Positions 38,017 to 49,700 of a DNA stretch of 64,000 bases are shown here, in pieces (position 1 is the first letter of the stretch; each line of letters starts with the position of its first letter). Location of the stretch: positions 124,001-188,000 of the forward strand of contig JABVCE010000023.1 in assembly GCA_014905635.1 (NCBI GenBank), read 5' to 3'. The DNA is from Scenedesmus sp. PABB004. Taxonomy: Eukaryota. The position numbers were made by a program, and so were the translations under genes. Under the pieces are notes generated by a model. It searched no databases, was not told where the DNA came from, and saw nothing but the letters and a program-made list of their open reading frames with translations.

Positions 38017-41000
38017 TCACGGCACGCGGCGGACCTGCACGCTTCGGATGATGTCCTCCTCGCGCGGCCGCAGGTCACTCACCACGACCACCAGGTCGCC
38101 CGCGCGCACAAAGCCGCGCCCCTTCATCAGCTGGAACGTGCGCCGCACGTTGTCCTGGCGCGGCGGCGGCGGCGCGGGCGCAGGGGCGGCGGCGGAGGGG
38201 CGATCAGCGCGGCGTGCTGGGCATGGCTGGCGGCAGCTGCGCCGCGCGCGATGCCCCCCCCCACACACACACACAGATACACCACCGCCGCCACCACACA
38301 CCCACACACCTCTGGGTCGGCGGAGAAAGGCATGCGGAAGGGCATCACGCCCCACCTGCGTGGCGGGCGGAGCAGAGGCAGGCAGGCGGGGTCGGCGCGG
38401 CGGGCCCGACGCGCGGCGCGGCGGTCAGGCTGCGGCGCCGCGGCGGCTGCGGCGCCGCGCGCACCGCAGGTTGAGGCGCTGCCGCACGCTCTGGTCGTCC
38501 GTGAGGGCAAACACGGGGCAGTCCGGCCTGCCGCGGGGGCGCGCCGGCACGCCGGCGGTCGGCCGCGCGCTGCCGCGCCGGCGGTCGCCCAAGAGGCGCC
38601 GTGAGCCCTAAACCCTACCCCCCAGAACTCCGTTCAGGTTTAAGGTGTTAGTTTTAGTGTTAGCTTAGTCTACACGCGCCCGCCCTCTCACCTGCAGCGG
38701 CTGAGGAAGTGCGCCATGTAGCCGCGGCGCGTGTAGACAAAGACCGCGGCCGCCTCGAGCCGGTTGGCCATGAGCGCGGCGCTGGCGCAGATCTGGCGGC
38801 GCGGCGGCCACGGGCGGGCGCGGGGCGGCGGCGGCGGCGGCGGCGCGTGCGCGCGCGTGCGGGGCGCAGCGGCGGTGAGCGGGGCGCGGCGGGGCGGGGC
38901 GGCGGCGGCGGCCGCGCGCGCGCGCGCGCCGCACCTCCTCGCTGATGCGGCCGTCGGCGGTCTCTGCGATCTGGGGCAGCACGACGCCCCCAAACTTCTC
39001 CTCCCGCACCCACTCCTGTCGCGCGGCGCGGGGCGCGGGCGCGGCGTGTGAGCGCGCGCGGGCGGGCGCGCGGGCGGGCGGGCGCGGTGGCCTGGCCGCA
39101 CCTCCATGCGCGTCGCGACGCTGCGCAGCACGCCCAGCGCCTTCTCTGGGTACGCCCCCATCGCCGACTCGCCTGGCGGCGGCGGCGTTTGAACAGGTTT
39201 GAACAGGCTTGGACGGGCAGCCCCCCCCTCCCACACACAGGCGCAGCCCAAACGGCCAAGCCCGAAAAAGCAGCCGACCGCGCGCCCCGCGCGCCGCCCC
39301 GGCGGCTGCGGCTGCTGCGCCCCTCCCCTCCCCCTGCGCCGCGCGCGCACCTGAGAGCATGAGCGCGTCGGCACGCTGCCGCACCACGTCCGCGACGTCC
39401 GCCACCTCCGCGCGCGTGGGCACCGGGTATTCTATCATGCTATGCAGCAAGTCGTGCGCCACGATGGCCGGCTTGCCCAGCTGCCGCGCGCGCATGACGG
39501 CGTGCTTCTGCACGCTCGGCACCTCCTCCACCGGGATCTGCGGGCATCGGTGCATTGAGGGGGGGGGGGGGTTGAGCAGGCGCGCTGGGGGCGCGCTGGG
39601 GCCGCTGGGCGCGCTGGGCGTGCGGCGGTGCGGTGCGGCGCGGCGCGGTGCGGCGCGGCGGTGCGGTGCGCGGCGCGGCGGTGCGCGGCGGCCGCGCCTG
39701 CGCGCCGAGGTCGCCGCGCGCGACCATGATGCCGTCTGACGCGCTGATGATGGCGTCGAGGTGGGTGAGGCAGTCAAAGGCCTCCAGCTTGGCGATCAGC
39801 TCGATCGACGGCGGCCGCGACCCTGCGGCGGCAGTGCCGGCGGCAGTGATTGCGGCGGCGGCGACGAGGGGGCTTGCGGCAGGGGGCGGCGGGGCGTGGC
39901 GCGGCGCGGGGCGCGTGGGGGCCGCCGGGCGGGGCGCGCGCCGCACCCGCGTCGTCGTCGTCGCCGCCGCCGGCGGTGCGCGTGGCGATGTAGCTGCGCA
40001 GGTTGTTGATGACGTCGGGTGTGCGCACAAAGCTGATGGCAATGAAGTCGACGCCGACCGAGATGGCCCTGCGAGCGCGCGCGGCGCAGCGCGGCGTGAG
40101 AGAGCAGCGGGCGTTGCGTGGCGGGCGCGGCGCGGCGCGCGGCGCGCGGCGCGCGGCGCGCGGGGCGGGGCACGGCGGGGAGCCGCGCAGGCCCGGGCGG
40201 CGGCGGGGCGTGTGTGTGGGGGGGGGAGGGAGGGAGGCACTCGCCAGTCGAGGTCGCGCCAGTCCTTTGACGAAATGACCGGCAGCATCGCCGCGCGGCC
40301 GCGTACGAGCTCGCCGTCGCGGCGGAACGTGAGGTTGGCGCGCGAGAGCAGCAGCCCCTGCTCGATGCTCTCCGCGAGCACGTCCGGCCCCGCCTTGCGC
40401 GTGACCACGAGCTCGCACATGCCGCCGTCCACCACGATGTGGTCGCCCACCTGGCGGCGGCGCGGGCGGGGGCGCACAGCGTGCGTCACGCAGGCGGCGG
40501 CGCGGCCCGGCGCGGGGCGAGGCCCGCAGGCACGGGCACGGGCGGCCCCGCGCGCGCCGCCCCGCCCCGCGTTCCCGCTGCCGGGCGCGCCCCCCGCCGC
40601 GCCGCGCCGCGCCTCGAGGTCGTCTGTGAGGGAGTCGTAGTTGACGCCCACCACGGGCAGGCCGTCGATCGTCGGCGGCGGCGGGGAGCGTATCGTGAAG
40701 AACACGCGGCTGCCGACCTGCGGCCGCGCCGCGCGGGCGCGGACGACGCGCGCGGCGGCGGGGCCGGGGGGCGTCGGCCGCGGCGGCGCGCGCCGCGCGC
40801 CGCGGCGCCCCCCTCCCCTTCCCTTCCGCCCTTCGCCAAGAACCGCCGCCGCCGCGGTGGCTCGGCTCAGCCCAGCTCAGCCCAGCTCAGCCCAGCCCAG
40901 CTCAGCTCAGCCCCGCTCACCTCGATCTTGATCGCCTCGGCCAGCTCGCCGGTGTGGATCTCGCTGCCCTCCGTGTCGACCATCAGCGCGATGCAGTACC

Positions 41001-41806
41001 TGCAGCCACGGACCGCGGGGCGCGGTGCGAGGGGTGAGCGTGAGCGCGCACGACCGAGCGCGCCGCGCGCCGCGCGGTGCAGCCGGCGGCGCCGCGCGCG
41101 GGCCGCGGTGGCCGCGTGCAGCTGCTGGCCCGCGCGCCGGTCCGGCCCGGTCCGGTCCGCACCCCATCTCCCGGTTGAGCTCGCGCACGTTGGCGACGAC
41201 GGCGTCCTGCCACGCGCGGTTGCCGTGCGTGAGGTTGAGGCGCGCCACGTTCATGCCGCCCTGCGCGAGGCGGGCCAGGACCTCCTTGCTCGCGCTCGCG
41301 GGGCCGATCGTGCACACCAGCTTCGTGCGCCGCGTGCTGCGGAAGCCTGGGCGCGGCGGGGGCGCGGCGGGGCGGGTCGCCGGGGGCAGGGCAGCCCCGC
41401 AGCCGGCGGCGCCGCGCGCGGGCCGCGTGCAGGTGCTGGCCCGCGCGCCGCGCAGGCCCGGTCCGGTCCGCGGGGGCAGGGCAGGGCCGGCGGCGCCGCC
41501 GCGCCGTGCGGGTGCGCGCTGCTGCGAGGGCGGCGCACCGTTCTCCGCGAGCAGCGCCGCCTGCAGCTCCTGCTGCGCAGCGGGCGACATCTCCAGCTCC
41601 GGCAGCGCCTGCTGCGGCGCCGGCGCCGGCGCCGCGGGCGCCGCCGCGGGCGCGGGCCTCGGTGGCGCCGTCTCGGCGCTGCGCGCCGGCTGCGCGGTCC
41701 GCCTGGCGGTGCTCCTCTGCAGCGCCCGGAAGCGTCCGGAATGCGGGGAGCCGACGGCGGCCGGCGGCGCCGCCCCGGTGGCGGCGGCGCGCCGCGGCAC
41801 CAGCAT
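38017..41806 (-). CDS. PYK: Plastid-type pyruvate kinase with N-terminal transit-peptide-like sequence
   Basis: ATG 41806; [99 protein letters not shown]. About 13 introns, three with GC donors. Confidence 0.97.
40861..40912. repeat. Intronic pentamer repeat (CTCAG/CCCAG)n
   Basis: ctcggctcagcccagctcagcccagctcagcccagcccagctcagctcag in a pyruvate kinase intron. Confidence 0.85.
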
Positions 41807-42054
41807 CTCGCCGCTGCTGCTGCCAAACGCTTTCGAGCGCGGCCGGGTTCCGCGGCGCGGTGGCGAGCTCTGCGGCTGCGTGGCAGCTGGCCGACAGGGC
41901 GAGCGTCGACGAATCGGCAGCTGGTGCGCCGAGTGCCAACACAACCCCGAGACGCAGGAGACTGCCGCCGAGGCGCCGGCGCGTCGAGCGGTCGCCAGGG
42001 CAGGCTGGAACGCGCACGCGCGCGGGCGGGCGCGGGCTGCGGACACTAAACCAT

Positions 42055-42418
42055 CGTGAGCGCCATCGACTGCGTGCTCCCCGGCCTCGCTAGCGCCGTG
42101 GGGGCGCCGGCCGGTGGGGTCAACACCGGCGGCTGGGGGGATGGGGGGGCTGCCGGGGCGCCGCCCCCAACACCGACCATGGGCAGCCTATCAACGCCGG
42201 CCGCCTGAAACAGGCCACAGCGGCGGAGGCATGACGGTTTGGGACCGGCCCGTCGGTCGGTGCCCCGCGAGGGGTCCCCCCGCACCCGGAACGGGTGACA
42301 AGGCGAGAAACACAACACGCGCACACGCCCGACCTAACCTGGCAACACACAACAGCAAGAGGCCTTTTAACGTCCTGCCCAGGACGGAGAGCGCAGCGCA
42401 CCGCACACACCGCTCACG
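42055..42418. ncRNA. Candidate structured non-coding RNA or 3'-UTR element, family unknown
   Basis: Four nested end-to-end stems plus internal hairpins; no convincing coding frame or intron signals. See findings. Confidence 0.45.
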
Positions 42419-42451
42419 CCGGGGGTCCCACCGCGGCGGCACGCAAGCAAG

Positions 42452-43650
42452 CTATATGCGAATGCATTGTTGAGCACATGATGCACCCGGCCGTTGCGCT
42501 GTCACCTGCTCCCAGGCGCGCCACCCGCGCCCGACGACGTCGCGCCCGGCGCTCCGCCGCCCTGGTGCGGCGCGGCGGGCGCCGGGGGGGGGGGGGGGGG
42601 GGGCGCCGCCGTGGCCGCGCCCGCGCCCGCGGCCGCCCGCGTGCTGCGCGACGCGCGGGCCAGCCGCAGGCAGCGGCACGTATGGCGCGGCGGTCGGGTT
42701 GAGCGCTGCGGGCGCGAGCGGCGGCGGTGGTAGGGGCGGGCGACGGGTGGGCGGGCGTCAGCGGCGCGCGCGGCGCGGGCGCAGGCGCGCATGTGCCGGC
42801 GGGCAGCGCAGCGGCGCGCACGCTCACATGCGGGCGGCGCGGCGCGCGAGACGGCCACAGGCGGGGCCGCCAGCGCGTACGGCGCGGCGGTCGGGTTGAG
42901 CGCTGCGGGCGTGCGGCGGCGGTGGCAGGGGCGGGCGGCGGGTGGGCGGGGCGCCGCGGGCGCGCGTGCAGTGGCAGCACGCGCCACGCTCACCCCCCCT
43001 AGGCGGCGCGGCGCGCTGCGGCTCCAGCGCGTCCTCGGCGGCGCGCTTGGGGGGCGCGGCGCGGGTGGCGGGCCTGCGCGGTGTGTGTGTGTGTGTGGTG
43101 GGGGAGGGGGGGGGAGGTGCGCGCGCGGGTGAGGCGGGGGCTTGCTCCGGGGGGCGGCGCGCGGCGCGGGGGGGGGGGGGGGGGGGGGCCGGCCGCCGCC
43201 CGTCGGGGCGCGCACCGGCGGCGCCGATGGCGCGGGGGTAGGAGAAGGCCGCGGCGCTCTGCGCGGGCGAGACGGGCGGGCGGTGAGCGGGCGCCGCGGG
43301 CGGCGGCGGCGAGACGGGCGCGCGGCGCGGCAGCGGGCTCTCTCTCTCAGCGCAGCGCAGCGCGCAGCGCCTGCCGCTCACCCGCGGCCACGCGCTCGGC
43401 CAGCTGCGGCGTGAGGAAGCGCACGGGAGGAGGAGGAGGGAGGCTGGCCGCGAGGTCGATGTAGGGCAGGCGCAGGGGATGGAAGTTGGCCTCCTCGGGC
43501 GGGGGCGACGCACGCGCGCGATCACAACGCCCGCGCAACGCCTGCCCGCCCGCCCTCACCCGCGGCCACGGGCTCCATCTCCATCTCCTCCAGGTGCGCG
43601 AGCGGGCGCAGCGGCCCGCTGGCCGGCGGATCCACGTCCATCGCATCCAT
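42452..43650 (-). CDS. Pro-rich protein with two PAM2-like motifs and an RG-rich segment (putative PABP-interacting protein)
   Basis: Two exons start LNPTAAPYA and LNPTAAPYVP (PAM2 consensus LNxxAxEFxP); GGRGRGRGHGG follows. Start (ATG 43650), one acceptor and the stop are uncertain because of G20 and G21 runs at 42584-42603 and 43168-43188. Confidence 0.5.
42679..42945. repeat. Tandem duplication (197-bp period) of intron end plus PAM2 exon start
   Basis: 42679-42714 and 42876-42911 are identical at 35 of 36 nt; similarity continues into the adjacent intron sequence. Confidence 0.9.
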
Positions 43651-43743
43651 CTCGCGGAGGTGTCGGCGCGCGGAGCGCGGCGAGCCGCCCTCAGCGTGTA
43701 GGGGACCGGGTCGTCGATCGACCCGCCGGGCCTGGCGGGCAGC

Positions 43744-46700
43744 ATGCGGCGGCGGCGGCGGCTGGTGGCGCTGCTGCTGTCGGCGGTGGCGCTGCAGCTC
43801 GCAGCCGCGGCAGCGGCCGCCGGTACTGCGCGCCACCCCGGCAACGCCGGCGGCGGGCCGACCCGGAGCCTGCAGCAGAGCCTCGCCAGCCGCGCGTCGG
43901 CGGCGGGCGTGCCGACGGGGCTGACTGCGGCGTTTGCGGGCCTAGCGTCGGGCGTGCGCGCGCCGGGCGCCGCCGGCGGCGGCGCCAACCGCAGCGCGAG
44001 CGGCGGGCCCAACGCCACCGCGCTCGCGTGCCCGCCACCGGACGCGCGCCTGTCGGCGGCGGGGTGCATGTGCGTGATGGACACGTCAACCGCCGGCGCG
44101 CCGCGCCGCGGCGGCGGCGACGCCGCGCGGCCCCGTGCCGGGCCTGCCCCGCCGGCTCGCGCTGCAGCCCCTCCGCCGCGGCGGCCATCGTGGCGGCGGG
44201 CTGGGCGCAGCGCGCGGTCGGCGGCGGCGCCGTCAACTTTACTGTCGGCGAGATGGGGTCGGCGGACGCGCCGTTTGGCATCTGCGTCCCCTGCCAGCTG
44301 GGTGCGTGCGGCCCGCGCCGCCGCGCCGCGGGCGGGGGGCCTGACGCGGGCGCGGCCCCCGTTCCATCGCACGCGGCGCGCCGCCGCCCGCCGCCCGCCG
44401 CACCACGAGCCCCCGCCGCCGCCCGCGCGCAGGCGAGTTCTGCCCGGAGGGCACGCAGGAGGAGTCGTGGCTGAGCCTCTCGACGTGCCAGCTCAGCCCG
44501 CAGGCGTTCACGCCCGACGCCGGCGGCGGCGGCGGCGCGGCGCTGTGCAAGGGCTTCAAGGCCTGCCCCGAGGGCAGCTTCTGCCCCAACGCCTCGCACG
44601 CGCAGCCGTGCGAGCCCGGGCGCTGGTGCCCCGAGGGCAGCGTCGCGAGCGAGAGCTGCAACCTCACGGCACGGGGGCAGCACGCGGGCGGGGGCGTGGG
44701 CGGCGGCGCGGCGACGCGCGCGGCGCTGCGCCCTCAGCCCCGCTCTCCTGCCCCCCTCCTCCTCCCCTCTCCCCGCAGAGCGTGCTGGCCTGGAACCCCT
44801 TCCGCATGGTGCGCACCGAGCCCCAGGCCCTGCTGGAGCGCCTCGCCAGCTCCAACCAGCCGCTTGCGGGCAACTCGTGCCCCGCCAACTCGAGCAACCC
44901 CATCGGTGGCTGCCCCGCGGGCAGCTACTGCCCCAGCTCGGCGCACGTCGAGCCCTGCCCGCCCGGCTACTACTGCCCGGGTGCGCGCAGCGCGCAGCGC
45001 GCAGCGCGCAGCGCGCCCGCCGCCGCCACGGCGCCAGCCGGCGCCCGCCCACGCCGCGCGGCGCCGCGCGCCGGCCGCAGGCTTCACGGCGGCGCCGATC
45101 CGCTGCCCCGCGCTGTCGAGCTGCTACGCGCGCGGCGCGGCGGCGCCCAACTGGTCGTGGCTGGGCCTCGGGCTCATGCTGCTGCTGCTCCTGCTGCTGC
45201 TCGCGGGGCTTGAGTACGTGCGAGTTGTCGGCCGCCGTGACCGCATGGGCACCGCGCACGAGGATGAGGTGATGCAGCTGCTCAAGGCAGTCGGCTTCCA
45301 GGTGCGGCGGCGCCGCGCGTGCCGCCGCGGCGCGCGCGGCGGCGGCGCCCGCGGCCGCGCCCGCGCCCGGCCCGCGCCCCGCGCCCGCCCGCGCGCCCAC
45401 GCGGCCGCGCGCCTGCCGCCTGCGCCCGGGCGCAGATGGTGGGCACGGGGGAGGACATGGCAGTGGTCAAACGGGCAAAGAAGGAGCCGGCCAAGGCCCG
45501 CTCCTTTGCGCGCTCGCTCAGCAGCGGCCTCAAGCGCATCACCAGCGGCGGCGGCCGCGGCGGCGACGACGCCGGTGCGCCGGGCAGCCGCTCCTTTGTG
45601 CGCTCGCTCAGCAGCGGCCTCAAGCGCATCGCCAGCGGCACCCGCGGCGGCGACGCGAGTGCGCCGGGCGGCCACGGCAAGCCTCCGGGCGTCCCCGGCC
45701 CGGTGGCGGAGGGGCGCGAGGCGCACGCCGACGTGGAGCTGGGCGGCGCCGGCGGCGGTCCCGACACGCTGCGGCGCGGCAGCGGCGCTGGCGGCGCCGG
45801 CGGCGACCAGGCGGCCCTGTCGCCGGTCGGCAGCACGAGCGGCCGGTGGAGCGTCGACGCGGGCGGCGACGGCGCCGACGGCACGCAGCGCGCGCGCAGC
45901 GCGCGCTGGGCGCGCCTGGGCAGCCGCACCGCGAGCCTGGGCGGCTCGCGCCGCGAGGCCGGCGGCAGCGGCGGCGGCGGCGTTGTCGCTGGCGACGGCG
46001 ACGAGGGCAGCCAGTACCAGGTCAACCCCCGGCTGACCCTGGTCTTCAGCGACGTCTGGGTCGCCGACCGCTCGATGCAGCAGAGCGCCCTCTCACGCGC
46101 GGCCGGCCGGCTGCGCGGCCGCGGGGGCGACAAGGCCGCTGACGGCGGCGCCAAGGGCGCAGACGGGAGCGCGAAGGGCGCCGACGGCGGCGCCAAGGCG
46201 GCGGCCGGCGGCGCCGCGTCGGCCAACGGCAGCGCCAACGGCAGCGGCCACGCGCGGCACCACCAGGGCAGCCACCACCACGGCGGCCACCACCACGCCG
46301 CGGCCACCACCGCCACGGCGGCCACCGCCGGCCACCACCGCCACCACGGCCACCGCCACCACTTCCACCTCCACCACCGCCACTTCCACCTCCACCTCCA
46401 CCGGCGCGGCGGCCGGCACCCGGGCGCGCCGGCGGGCGGCGTGGTGGACGCGGCGCAGCGCGCGCGCGACGCCGCGCTCGACGCCGCGGCGGCGGCGGGC
46501 GCCAAGTTCATCGTGCCCGGCGTGAGCGGGCGCTTTGCGCACTCGAGCCTGCACGCAATCATGGGCCCGAGCGGGTGCGGCAAGACGAGCCTGTGCAAGG
46601 CGCTCGCGGGGCGGCTGCCCATGGAGCGCATCGTCGGCGACATCCGCATGCGCTGCAGCAGCGCGGCCGACGGCTTTGGCAGCGAGAGCGAGGTCGCGGT

Positions 46701-49700
46701 GACCGGCCTCGCGTCGGGTGTGGTCGCAAACCTCGCATACATGACCGGCTTCGTCCCCCAGTTTGACCTGCTCCACGAGAGCCTCACCGTGAGCGAAAAC
46801 CTCGAGGTCGCCGCGCGGCTGCGCCTGCCGAGCGACGCGGGGCTCCCGCCCGCCGCGCAGCACGGCGCGGGGCACAGGTGCAGCGCGGGCGACGGCGCGG
46901 CGGCCGTGCTCGACGCGGCGGCGCACGGCGACGCGCACGGCGCGCACCACGTGCACGAGCACGACTTTGGGCACGGCCACCACCGCGAGCACGTGGTCGC
47001 GGTCGCGGCGGCCAAGGTCAAGCGCCTGCGCGAGCGCGAGGTGCGGAGCGTGGTGGATGAGGTCATTTCGCTCATGGCCCTGGAGAAGATCATGCACTCG
47101 GTGAGCCCCGCGGGCGGACCAGGCGGCGGGAGGGGGGGGGAGAGGTCCAGCGGCAGGGAGGGAGGCGTGGACCAGGCGCCGCGCCGCGCCGCGCCGCGCC
47201 GCGCGCGCCTCCCACGCCGCCGCCGCGACGCGCGCCGCCGCGGCGCGCAGGTCGTGGGGTCGACCGAGTCGCGCAAGATCTCGGGCGGCCAGCGCAAGCG
47301 CGTCGCGATCGGCGTGGAGCTCGTGGCGCGGCCGTGCCTGTTGTTCCTGGACGAGCCGACGAGCGGGCTGGACGCCGCGGTCGCGGCGGACGTGGTCGAC
47401 GCGCTCAAGGCCAGCAGCGGGCGCGGCATGAACGTCCTCGCCGTCATGCACCAGCCGCGGTGCGCGCGGCGCGGCGCGGCGCGGGACGCGGGGCGCGGGG
47501 CGCGGGGCGCGGGGCGCGGGGCGAGCGCCGCGCCGCACACACCGCTGGCCGCTGACACCCCACAAACACCCACACCCACGCCCACGCACACACCACCCAC
47601 ACACCACCCACACCCACACACCTTTGCGCCCACCCATGCGCCCACGCGCCCGCACCCACGCACGACCCCCCTCCCTGTGCAGGTGCTCCATCTTCAACAC
47701 CTTCGACTCCTGCTTCCTGCTGAGCGGCGGGGGCCACGTCGTGTACGCGGGCCCGCAGCGCCTCGCGGGCGCCTTCCTCGACTTCCTCGGCTTCCACTCG
47801 CCGCCGGGGGAGAACGCGGCAGACTTCCTGCTCGACGTCATCACGGGTGCGTCACTTTTTTGTGTTATTTTTGTCATTATCATTGCATGCACGCGCGCGC
47901 GTGTGAGATGACGCCGCCGCCGACCCGCGCTGCCGCGACGGCGGCGTCACGGGCGCGGCCAGCCGCCCGCCCGCCACCGCCGTCGCCCGCGCCCGTGCCC
48001 GCCGCCAGGCACGGTGCGGCGGCCCGGGGACCCTGACTACATTCCCAGCCAGCTCGCGCTGCTGTGGAACAAGTGCGGCGCCATCTGGATCGCCAGCCAG
48101 CTGCGCAAGGAGCGCGCCGCGGCGGCGGGCGGCGGCGCGGGCACGGTCGCGGCGCCCGCCGGCGGCGGCGCGCTCGCGTCCGCGCCGAGCCTGCCCGCGC
48201 CCGGCGGCGAGGGCGGCCCGACCAGCGGCCCGCTCAGCGGCCCGCTGCCGGCGGGCGGCGCGCCGGCGGCGGCCGCGTGCGACTGGCCGTGGCGGCCGCG
48301 CGAGCTCGAGGCGCTGCTGTCGCGCTTCAACCTGCTCGTCGACGCCAAGCGCGCGAGCCACGGCGCGGCCGGGCCCGGCAGCCACCACCACGGCGGCGCG
48401 GACGAGCACGACGACGTGCTCAGCTACGAGGGCTTCCTGGGGTTTTGGGAGCACAGCGGGCTCAACCACATGCTCAGCGAGGTGCGGACGCGCCGGGCGC
48501 GGCGGTCGCGGCGCCCGGCGGCACGGGCGCGGCGCCCGGCGGGGCCCGCGCCGCCGCCTGCCCGGCGTCCGCTGACCGCGCCGCTGCGTCGCCGCGCCGC
48601 CGCGTCGCCCCACGCTGTGCGCCGCAGGCGCAGTATGCCGCGTTCATCGCGGGCGTGTGCGACGACTTTGGCGTGCACCCGGGCACCCACATCAGCCAGG
48701 CTGAGTTTATGGGCGTTATCAAGGCCCAGATGCGCGCCGCGGCGGGCCTGCCGCCCGTGCCCGAGGCGACGCCCGAGCCCGCGGCGCCGGCGCCGGGCGG
48801 CGCGCAGGCGGGCGCCCGCGGCGCCGGCGGCGCGCCGCCCGAGGCCGGCGGCGCGCTGCGGGCGGCGTCGCTGGATGAGGAGGCGTCGCCGTTTGCCGCC
48901 GCGGCGCCGCCGGCCGGCGGCGACGCGGCGGGCGGGCAGCAGAGCGCGGCGCTGCAGCGCTTCCGCATGGCCGGCCGCGCCGTGATCGAGCAGCTGGGCG
49001 GCTCGGTGCGCGACGGCGGCCCCGGCTCGGCGACGCCGGGCGGGGCGGCCGGCGGCGGGTGGTCGGCGTTCCTCGCCAGCGCGCACCTCGGCGCGACGCC
49101 CAAGGACCGCACCATGGGCGCGCTGATGGACCTGCTGCTCCACGAGCACAAGGATGAGCTGGAGCAGGGCGAGCCCGGCGCGCCGCTCCACGCCGCCGAC
49201 GCCGCGGCGTCCGCGGCGCCCGCGGCGGCGGCCGGCGCCGCGGCGGGCGCGCCGGCCGCGCCCGGCGGCGCCGCCGCGACCGCCGCGGCGGCCGCCGCGG
49301 CGGCGGCGGTGTCGTCACGGTCGCTGCCGGGGCTGTGGTACCAGCTCGGCGTCGTCGTGCGGCGCAGCGGGCGCAAGTGGGTGTCCGCGCGCACCGCGCT
49401 GATGACCGACCTCGTGCTCACAGCCTTTCTCGGCCTCGCGCTCGGCGCGGCGCAGGGGCGCACCAACCGCCCCGCCGACAGGTGCGGCGCGGCGGCGGCG
49501 GCGGCGGCGGCGCGCCGCCCGGGCGGCCGGCGTCGCTCGTGGCGGCTCGGGCGCGGCGCGGGGCTGGCGCTCCCTCCAGGCCCCGCCCCGCCTCGGCGCT
49601 CCTGAAACCCCGCTCCTCAACCCCCGCCGCCGCGCCGCCCCCTGCAGCGTGCTGTGGCTGCTGATCATGCTGCTGGCCTTTGGCTGCATGACCCTCGCGC

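Follow-up and report, generated by a model that had tools for sequence, protein, structure and literature searches.

The pyruvate kinase spacer and its 27-nt motif

The window analyzed here is a 64-kb stretch of contig JABVCE010000023.1 from the green alga Scenedesmus sp. PABB004, with a GC content of 79%. It contains a non-coding spacer between two minus-strand genes, of which the downstream gene encodes pyruvate kinase. A previous sequence-only reading described positions 42055-42418 of this spacer as a candidate structured RNA of approximately 365 nucleotides (nt). In the present study, we propose instead that the spacer is not one element, and that a 27-nt pseudoknot on its minus strand, related to the coremin motif of RNA viruses, acts as a roadblock to machines that travel 5' to 3' along RNA. 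We regard this statement, taken as a whole, as evenly balanced between right and wrong; its parts differ in strength and are assessed separately below. The features of the motif and its surroundings are as follows (ORF, open reading frame).

42360-42386, minus strand: compact H-type pseudoknot motif, RNA sequence CGUCCUGGGCAGGACGUUAAAAGGCCU; motif position p corresponds to coordinate 42387-p, and all 8 pairs form
42383-42386, minus strand: 5' strand of stem 1 (C1 G2 U3 C4), predicted by covariation to pair with 42371-42374
42371-42374, minus strand: 3' strand of stem 1 (G13 A14 C15 G16), from covariation
42377-42380, minus strand: 5' strand of stem 2 (G7 G8 G9 C10), located in the hairpin loop and predicted by covariation to pair with 42360-42363
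42360-42363, minus strand: 3' strand of stem 2 (G24 C25 C26 U27), from covariation; G7-U27 is a wobble pair in the window
42381-42382, minus strand: loop 1 (C5 U6), kept when left free in the scans
42375-42376, minus strand: loop 2, A11 (kept when left free) and the variable N12 (G here)
42364-42370, minus strand: A-rich loop 3 (U17 U18 A19 A20 A21 A22 G23), A19-A22 kept when left free
41830-42520, minus strand: non-coding spacer between two minus-strand genes, lacking codon-position GC periodicity and enclosing 42055-42418
42452-42454, minus strand: TAG stop of ORF 42452-42757, which carries the peptide LNPTAAPY, from the ORF list
42502-42504, minus strand: stop of the alternative upstream frame, ORF 42502-43377, which is slightly favored by the GC content of third codon positions
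41804-41806, minus strand: ATG that comes first in frame in the pyruvate kinase exon-1 ORF, with another at 41590

The pairings described for the long element do exist. All five nested end-helices were found; that between 42055-42062 and 42411-42418 has no mismatch, whereas three others have a single one, which on the minus strand turns into a G-U pair. Also present were the 8-bp repeat 42171-42178/42255-42262, the loop complement 42180-42185, four small hairpins, and, on the minus strand, the hairpin CGUCC-UGGGCA-GGACG (42371-42386) with UUAAAA after it. As reported, the composition differs from the flanks, with a GC fraction of 0.67-0.73 inside 42055-42418 versus approximately 0.80 outside. 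The minimum-free-energy folds of both strands include the 8-bp terminal stem, and dinucleotide shuffling yielded folding z-scores of -2.35 (plus strand) and -2.53 (minus strand) for a segment with ends that had been preselected for pairing. These results favor one structured non-coding RNA (ncRNA) with nested closing stems and a three-way junction. However, the segment falls within the bulk of the genomic controls. When folding energy was regressed on GC content across 510 genomic windows of 364 nt, it ranked at the 26th percentile on the plus strand and the 3.7th on the minus strand, and approximately 10 of the 62 windows of similar GC content folded as well or better. Perfect 8-bp inverted repeats with a span of 50-400 nt occur 10,042 times in the 64 kb. 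Three are located inside the segment, and 92% of 350 windows contain at least three. In a direct control, 2,500 repeats were sampled from 4,050 other perfect 8-bp closing repeats with a span of 300-430 nt; the arm-to-arm duplex energy was equal to or better than that of the segment in 94.5% (plus strand) and 86.4% (minus strand) of them. The nested stems are thus at the level of chance by the genomic-window, repeat-count, and arm-energy controls, and the three-way junction loses its support with them.

A cmscan search of the surrounding 2.5-kb region against Rfam did not reveal any significant family. The best match, to the Guanidine-III riboswitch (RF01763), was sub-threshold, with 15.2 bits where the threshold is 36 (E=4.8), and was located at 42241-42314 on the plus strand, off the motif. 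Apart from low-complexity GC runs, no part of 42000-42480 has a second copy in the window, and outside a core of 27-31 nt nothing recurs elsewhere in the window or in loci L001-L008, which are discussed below. The suggestion of a short interspersed nuclear element (SINE)-like origin gained no support either, since the sequence is present in a single copy in the window without a flanking repeat. Furthermore, the stem 42083-42088/42359-42364 competes with the covariation-supported stem 2 because it uses the same GGCC. In view of the ordinary folding against the genomic background, the lack of an Rfam family, and the lack of recurrence in the window, we attribute the large structure to chance pairing. 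We conclude with high confidence that 42055-42418 is not one RNA unit, but a product of such pairing in a very GC-rich spacer; a single structured ncRNA at this position is extremely improbable.

The situation differs for the 27-nt motif. A 24-nt degenerate form of it has one match in the window, with no mismatches, whereas none of 100 shuffles contained a match even when up to 3 mismatches were allowed. The window copy carries all of the conserved unpaired bases of the family described below (C5, U6, A11, A19-A22, and G23). The hexamer TTTTAA/TTAAAA occurs once on either strand of the 64-kb window, inside loop 3; the uniqueness of this A/T-rich tract in 64 kb of DNA with 79% GC argues for selection or a recent arrival. 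With the same high confidence, we assign the 27-mer to the pseudoknot family on the basis of its sequence. The proposal that the hairpin loop forms a pseudoknot stands in so far as the loop does pair; however, it pairs with GGCC(U) next to it (42363-42360) and not with 42180-42185.

The motif shares its strand with the coding sequence of both flanking genes. Its start is 65 or 115 nt past the upstream stop, depending on the frame, and its end is 553 nt before the pyruvate kinase ATG. This arrangement makes the upstream gene's 3' untranslated region (UTR) its most likely location. A 3'-UTR element had been listed as one option for the long segment, and for the 27-nt core this option fits the strand, the distance from the stop, and the absence of codon periodicity from the tract. 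The upstream gene's 3' UTR and, after it, the promoter and 5' UTR of the pyruvate kinase gene probably occupy the spacer 41830-42520. Pfam did not assign a family to any ORF inside it.

Fold and distribution of the pseudoknot family

We aligned 149 distinct sequences (alignment A1), with the window copy as row 1. Pair 1-16 was CG in 48, AU in 20, UG in 17, UA in 16, GC in 11, and GU in 6. In stem 2, pair 8-26 was AU in 68, GC in 61, and GU in 8; pair 7-27 was GC in 73, GU in 24, AU in 23, and UA in 6; and pair 10-24 was CG in 134 and UG in 15. Pairing was observed in 94.5% of the cells versus 85.7% in shuffles, and 143 cells were changed on both sides versus 62 in shuffles; none of the 500 shuffles, which ignore kinship, reached either value. 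Controls in which the partners were slid gave only 17-44% pairing. Compensatory exchanges were also detected at positions that the scan patterns had fixed: U3-A14 became A3-U14 in the Lactobacillus phages mv4 and LL-H, and G2-C15 became A2-U15 in the second copy of one phage record (G003). The covariation of both helices indicates that the hairpin stem 1-4/13-16 and stem 2 (7-10/24-27) constitute an H-type pseudoknot.

The unpaired positions were assessed in scans that left them free. Among the matches listed, A19 was present in 114 of 114, A20 in 114 of 114, A21 in 113 of 114, and A22 in 103 of 114. When positions 5, 6, 11, and 12 of loops 1 and 2 were left free, C5 was retained in 42 of 42, U6 in 38, and A11 in all 42, while N12 varied (U in 27, A in 10, C in 3, and G in 2). 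Two aspects of the method reduce the weight of these counts. Many of the seemingly invariant columns were fixed by the scan patterns, G23 in all of them. In addition, the family sequences are related, so that the counts are not independent, and two of the scans listed only part of their matches.

Metagenome contigs were initially scanned with the hairpin and UUAAAA (27 bases, 42361-42387) in order to gauge copy number. This 27-mer was found exactly in 4 contigs with a GC content of 52-60%, which otherwise have nothing in common with the window. Further, slightly different copies are present in three of the four (L001, L002, and L004). In the collection of species genomes, the 26-mer 42361-42386 was exact in one bacterial genome, in a prophage region of Anaeromassilibacillus senegalensis, and this copy is the same DNA as a provirus in IMG/VR. 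A form degenerate at one position was present in 3 IMG/VR contigs. The IMG/VR loci matched by successive degenerate patterns numbered 44, 51, and 64, and then exceeded 115 and 121. The pooled instances from viral, metagenomic, and bacterial DNA amount to at least 245 unique instances and at least 197 distinct 28-mers, in contigs with GC contents between 33% and 73%. Conservation stops sharply at positions 1 and 28, and no similarity beyond 27-31 nt was detected between the window and any locus tested. Tandem arrangement was seen only in L001 (148-208 and 652-680), in which two copies are 30 nt apart and a third is approximately 500 nt away.

The family is uncatalogued, and is defined in the present analysis as the pseudoknot GUCCU-RRGY-A-x-GAC-xUU-AAAA-GGCYY. 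At permissive settings, cmscan found no Rfam model for the motif: the 56-nt core of the window gave a 9.9-bit fragment of a long non-coding RNA, the tandem copies in L001 gave only a 10.9-bit fragment of a small nucleolar RNA, and 20 phage loci (E<=5) gave only weak noise and the tRNA or transfer-messenger RNA (tmRNA)-like genes next to the motif. A search of the literature for the sequence string retrieved only unrelated primers, small interfering RNAs, and one microRNA. A topical search, which covered neither subscription journals nor supplements, did not retrieve a paper on phage or cellular copies of coremin or of other Xrn1-resistant RNAs (xrRNAs).

The strand, which the sequence-only reading had left open, was assigned from the flanks of the family members. 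We examined 66 viral instances with flanks of 900 nt and no more than 55% GC, using the longest ORF in each flank. Both flanks were on the strand of the motif in 54 of the 66, and both were on the opposite strand in 2, which places the window copy on the minus strand. The G-U pairs and this strand bias relative to genes suggest that the conserved entity is RNA rather than DNA. A DNA-level element has also to be considered, such as a hairpin or cruciform, a site for a recombinase, transposase, or replication protein, or a SINE or miniature inverted-repeat transposable element. The motif is a short partial palindrome, and in L004 a copy follows an integrase-like ORF. However, stem 2 covaries through G-U pairs (8-26, GU in 8; 7-27, GU in 24; 10-24, UG in 15; n=149), which is an RNA signature because a G-U pair becomes an A-C mismatch on the other strand. 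Together with the strong strand bias and the absence of a second copy or flanking repeat from the window, this makes a DNA-level element highly improbable.

In 33 of 102 cases, the upstream stop codon was located 4-9 nt before position 1, with a mode of 5 nt, and in phage and viral spacers the downstream start was usually 10-60 nt past the motif. The neighboring genes are diverse, encoding scaffold, capsid, portal, terminase, single-stranded DNA-binding (SSB), gp32, ribonucleotide reductase, PhoH, and tail fiber proteins. An element tied to one gene was therefore dropped, since the PHROG and Pfam families are diverse both upstream and downstream. Among five phage records, some of which are complete genomes of 38-205 kb, four carry one copy and one carries two; a general phage promoter was dropped because of these low numbers. 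A CRISPR-repeat mimic, a type III antitoxin repeat, and a riboswitch were dropped on the basis of context or cmscan only.

Individual loci illustrate the range of positions. In Lactobacillus phage LL-H (L281:2501-2527) and phage mv4 (L282:376-404), the motif is located between the minor head and scaffold genes. The annotated stop of ORF371 in LL-H is the UAA inside loop 3, and in mv4 the ORF stop lies 4 nt before the motif. In the GenBank record, a putative promoter is annotated just upstream. Three copies are positioned directly 5' of tRNA or tmRNA-like genes with a gap of 5-14 nt: in L019 and L040, the motif is followed by a tmRNA-like tRNA domain (41-42 bits, below the gathering score), and in L049 by the first gene of a tRNA array (71.8 bits). 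L008, a 4.3-kb IMG/VR contig with 36% GC, encodes an RNA-dependent RNA polymerase (RdRp) at 3-1463 (RdRP_3, E=5.7e-9). Its motif, at 1501-1526, is 34 nt past the RdRp ORF and near the 3' end of the contig; the 3' untranslated end is also the typical position of coremin in RNA viruses. BLAST identified a further copy in a Microviridae record, and L218, a contig with a capsid domain of the nucleocytoplasmic large DNA virus (NCLDV) type, carries the motif. On the minus strand of L004 (190-4799), ORFs of 419, 373, and 688 amino acids are separated by one motif copy each; L002 was flagged likewise. The second ORF of L004 has a weak phage integrase match (E=2.4e-5) and the third a weak RVT_1 match (E=2.9e-4, below the cut-off), and L004 may be a retroelement in which the knot serves as a spacer element between cistrons. 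The family is abundant in DNA phages, and further members come from a prophage and from virus-like contigs, one of them bearing an RdRp.

Probable relationship to known RNA elements

The descriptions of known viral elements in this section follow two papers, PMC10520033 and PMC10321173. Coremin (xrRNA-C), which occurs in beny-, cucumo-, and many other RNA viruses, is given as GUCCGAAGACGUUAAACUAC. It consists of a first hairpin (hp1) with the stem GUC/GAC and the loop YGAD or YGNNAD, a spacer, and a second hairpin (hp2); versions with 7- and 8-nt loops are still resistant to Xrn1, and coremin is located in 3' UTRs, in spacers, and around stop codons, where it blocks scanning ribosomes (PMC10520033). 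An H-type knot of the size of those of luteoviruses has been proposed for coremin, which is stated to have no solved structure (PMC10321173). Its Watson-Crick variant, xrRNA-WCC, has a canonical stem 2 and stimulates -1 frameshifting. It was chosen in a frameshift screen, and natural copies are present in Sanxia picorna-like virus 5 (hereafter SPlV5) and an alphachrysovirus (PMC10321173). Between them, the two types have been shown in vitro to stall Xrn1, block scanning ribosomes, and stimulate -1 frameshifting (PMC10520033, PMC10321173).

The family shares with coremin the hp1 stem GUC/GAC with a variable closing pair, a loop that starts with C and ends with A and a mostly non-C base, and a subsequent x-UUAAA. 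The shared core may be written GUC-C...A-x-GAC-x-UUAAA, and both elements are positioned in 3' UTRs or spacers or near stop codons. Coremin reads UUAAAC at the end of this core; in the family, C was present at position 22 in 10 of the 114 listed matches, 6 of which read A-UUAAAC where coremin reads G-UUAAAC. The coremin spacer is GUUAAACUAC with a conserved CUAC. The window copy keeps GUUAAA and has AGGCC in place of CUAC; throughout the family, (A)GGCY takes this place and forms a canonical 4-bp stem 2. The hosts also differ: those of coremin are RNA viruses, whereas those of the family are mostly DNA phages and, in the window, a cellular eukaryote.

With xrRNA-WCC, the family has in common the hp1 stem, an A-rich spacer, and a canonical antiparallel stem 2 formed between the loop and bases past the spacer. 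The SPlV5 copy is 8 nt past the last ORF, and the family peaks 4-9 nt past the stop. However, xrRNA-WCC has a 4-nt loop and a 3-bp stem 2, whereas the family has an 8-nt loop, a 4-bp stem 2, and the additional loop 2 A-N. The -1 frameshift knots of luteoviruses, such as that of beet western yellows virus (BWYV), are similar in size (approximately 27-28 nt), in the short C-containing loop 1, and in the A-rich loop across stem 1. They are frameshift signals, whereas the family motif is located outside coding sequences, and BWYV-type knots are reported not to stall Xrn1 (PMC10321173). No slippery heptamer was noticed upstream of the motif on reading the flanks, in which heptamers were not counted.

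Several comparisons weigh against a close relationship with these elements. The coremin loop requires G at its second position and the window loop, C-U-G-G-G-C-A-G, has U, although it agrees with coremin in its first base (Y), penultimate A, and last base (D). Loop 1 of xrRNA-WCC is a single G that cannot be substituted, whereas that of the family is C-U (C5 in 42 of 42). Moreover, neither coremin type resists Xrn1 without hp2, which is strictly needed for this property, although xrRNA-WCC can do without it in frameshifting (PMC10321173), and hp2 is not enriched in the family: the 28 nt directly downstream of the motif fold to a mean of -2.5 kcal/mol versus -2.8 and -3.5 in two control segments (n=160), and a hairpin starts within 4 nt downstream in only 16% of the 160. 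In the window, the next 28 nt fold to only -1.7 kcal/mol. The four differences are thus the U at loop position 2, the C-U loop 1, the 4-bp stem 2 with its A-N loop, and the lack of an enriched hp2. Since the core and the canonical stem 2 are shared in spite of them, we interpret the family as a new variant related to coremin and xrRNA-WCC, but a member of neither. On the sequence comparison, a relationship to coremin is probable.

The motif has in common with the pistol ribozyme (RF02679) a 5-bp stem capped by a 6-nt, pseudoknot-forming loop and a subsequent UUAAA. The likeness that had been pointed out holds in outline for the P1 hairpin and UUAAA; however, neither the 2.5-kb region nor the 56-nt core had a cmscan match to this ribozyme at E<=10. 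None was found in the 20 phage loci at E<=5 either, and nothing is conserved past position 28 for P2, P3, or the cleavage site. The wcaG RNA (RF01761) was also rejected, with no match at E<=10 in the window core and the tandem copies of L001 or at E<=5 in the 20 phage loci.

Possible function and genomic surroundings

We propose the following mechanism as the most likely one. Stem 1 (N-G-U-C/G-A-C-N), loop 1 (C-U), and stem 2 (GGGC/GCCU, closed past the A tract), with loop 2 A-N and loop 3 UUAAAAG, form the knot. If luteovirus-type knots are a guide, the minor groove of stem 1 would accommodate loop 3, and stem 2 would be the docking site of the invariant C5. The motif would be transcribed, probably as part of the 3' UTR of the upstream gene, and the knot would act as a directional mechanical block to machines that thread RNA in the 5' to 3' direction, either XRN-type exonucleases or ribosomes past the stop codon. 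RNA downstream of the knot would be protected or insulated. Reasoning from the viral elements, we propose such a roadblock in this organism tentatively, at somewhat less than an even chance. That a cellular eukaryotic mRNA has a working virus-type pseudoknot in its 3' UTR, blocking exoribonucleases or ribosomes, is a more demanding claim and appears doubtful. We know of no cellular coremin-type xrRNA that has been described.

Other observations do not favor a roadblock. The motif is present in a single copy in the 64-kb window. The hairpin is missing from the minimum-free-energy fold of the minus strand (364 nt), and no poly(A) signal of the form TGTAA, AATAAA, or ATTAAA is present on the minus strand of 41500-42520. 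Furthermore, most family hosts are bacteria, which lack Xrn1, and a block to RNase J or RNase E is conjecture. The simple label of an Xrn1-resistant RNA is weakened by the missing hp2 and by the fact that most members have bacterial hosts. In view of the tight spacing after stop codons, the role may be directed at ribosomes.

The pseudoknot may also be real and act differently, by binding a protein or small ligand or by signaling translation termination or coupling, without blocking exonucleases. The invariant unpaired bases C5, A11, and A19-A21 would be as compatible with a binding pocket as with tertiary contacts. The spacing of 4-9 nt past the stop in 33 of 102 cases is typical of knots that act on ribosomes, the annotated stop of LL-H falls within loop 3, and hp2 is missing, without which xrRNA-WCC still stimulates frameshifting (PMC10321173). 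On the other hand, the diverse neighbors on both sides argue against a gene-specific riboswitch or operator. Ribosomes are not expected at the copies directly 5' of tRNA or tmRNA-like genes or in a 3' UTR-like position, and the flanks as read gave no sign of a slippery heptamer. We regard this explanation as rather improbable.

Alternatively, the window copy may be a neutral remnant of an inserted virus, retroelement, or other mobile DNA, which folds and has no role in the alga. Its single copy in 64 kb and the overwhelmingly viral distribution of the family are consistent with this explanation, as is the presence of the motif in L004, with its weak reverse transcriptase and integrase-like ORFs. 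L218, with its NCLDV-type capsid domain, suggests that vehicles that might reach eukaryotes may exist. However, similarity to the tested loci does not extend beyond 27-31 nt, and the surrounding ORFs have no Pfam family. The 8 pairs, the conserved unpaired bases, and the sole TTTTAA in 64 kb of DNA with 79% GC are all intact, which would be unexpected in an old relic. A neutral remnant is therefore unlikely, but far from negligible.

If the more demanding claim of a working knot in a cellular mRNA is correct, the same 27-nt knot would serve as a universal roadblock in DNA phages, RNA viruses, retroelement-like contigs, and a eukaryotic cell. It would have to stop unrelated 5' to 3' machines (XRN1, RNase J, scanning RNase E, and ribosomes) without hp2. 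A functional motif would place a coremin-type knot in a cellular gene. It would also tie xrRNA-C and xrRNA-WCC, known from RNA viruses of eukaryotes, to an uncatalogued DNA-phage family that is much larger. The family provides hundreds of natural variants for defining a fold that is stated to lack a solved structure (PMC10321173), and the 27-nt module may be of use in stabilizing RNAs. For genome scanning, the present results indicate that long nested stems are meaningless in DNA with 79% GC, whereas a short motif containing A/T may be a true signal.

Regarding the flanking genes, the Pfam pyruvate kinase barrel starts at residue 286 of ORF 40907-42187 (minus strand). Matches to this barrel are distributed over three separate ORFs on the minus strand, within 38665-42187. 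The gene is therefore spread over several exons, and the DNA is that of an intron-bearing eukaryote. A protein search with exon 1 retrieved three distant matches, a plant pyruvate kinase with 65% identity and two others with 55-57%; none of these matches was a close relative or an annotated protein of this genome.

Upstream of the spacer, minus-strand ORFs encode LNPTAAPY twice. This gene had previously been named after PAM2; however, Pfam did not assign PAM2 or any other family to the LNPTAAPY ORFs. The peptide is encoded by two near-identical 33-nt direct repeats in the minus-strand coding direction, at 42680-42712 and 42877-42909. As the repeats start 197 nt apart, they are in different frames, so that an intron, a frameshift, or an error in the assembly must separate them. 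A run of approximately 22 G on the plus strand (42583-42604; C on the minus strand) is located just inside the ORFs upstream of the spacer and encodes a run of proline in one minus-strand frame. Judging from the ORF translations alone, an apparent plus-strand gene (43700-48036) starts at approximately 43.7 kb and is divergent from the LNPTAAPY gene; its product has Cys-rich repeats (CPEGSxCP...) followed by an ATP-binding motif of the ABC-transporter type (GPSGCGKTS).

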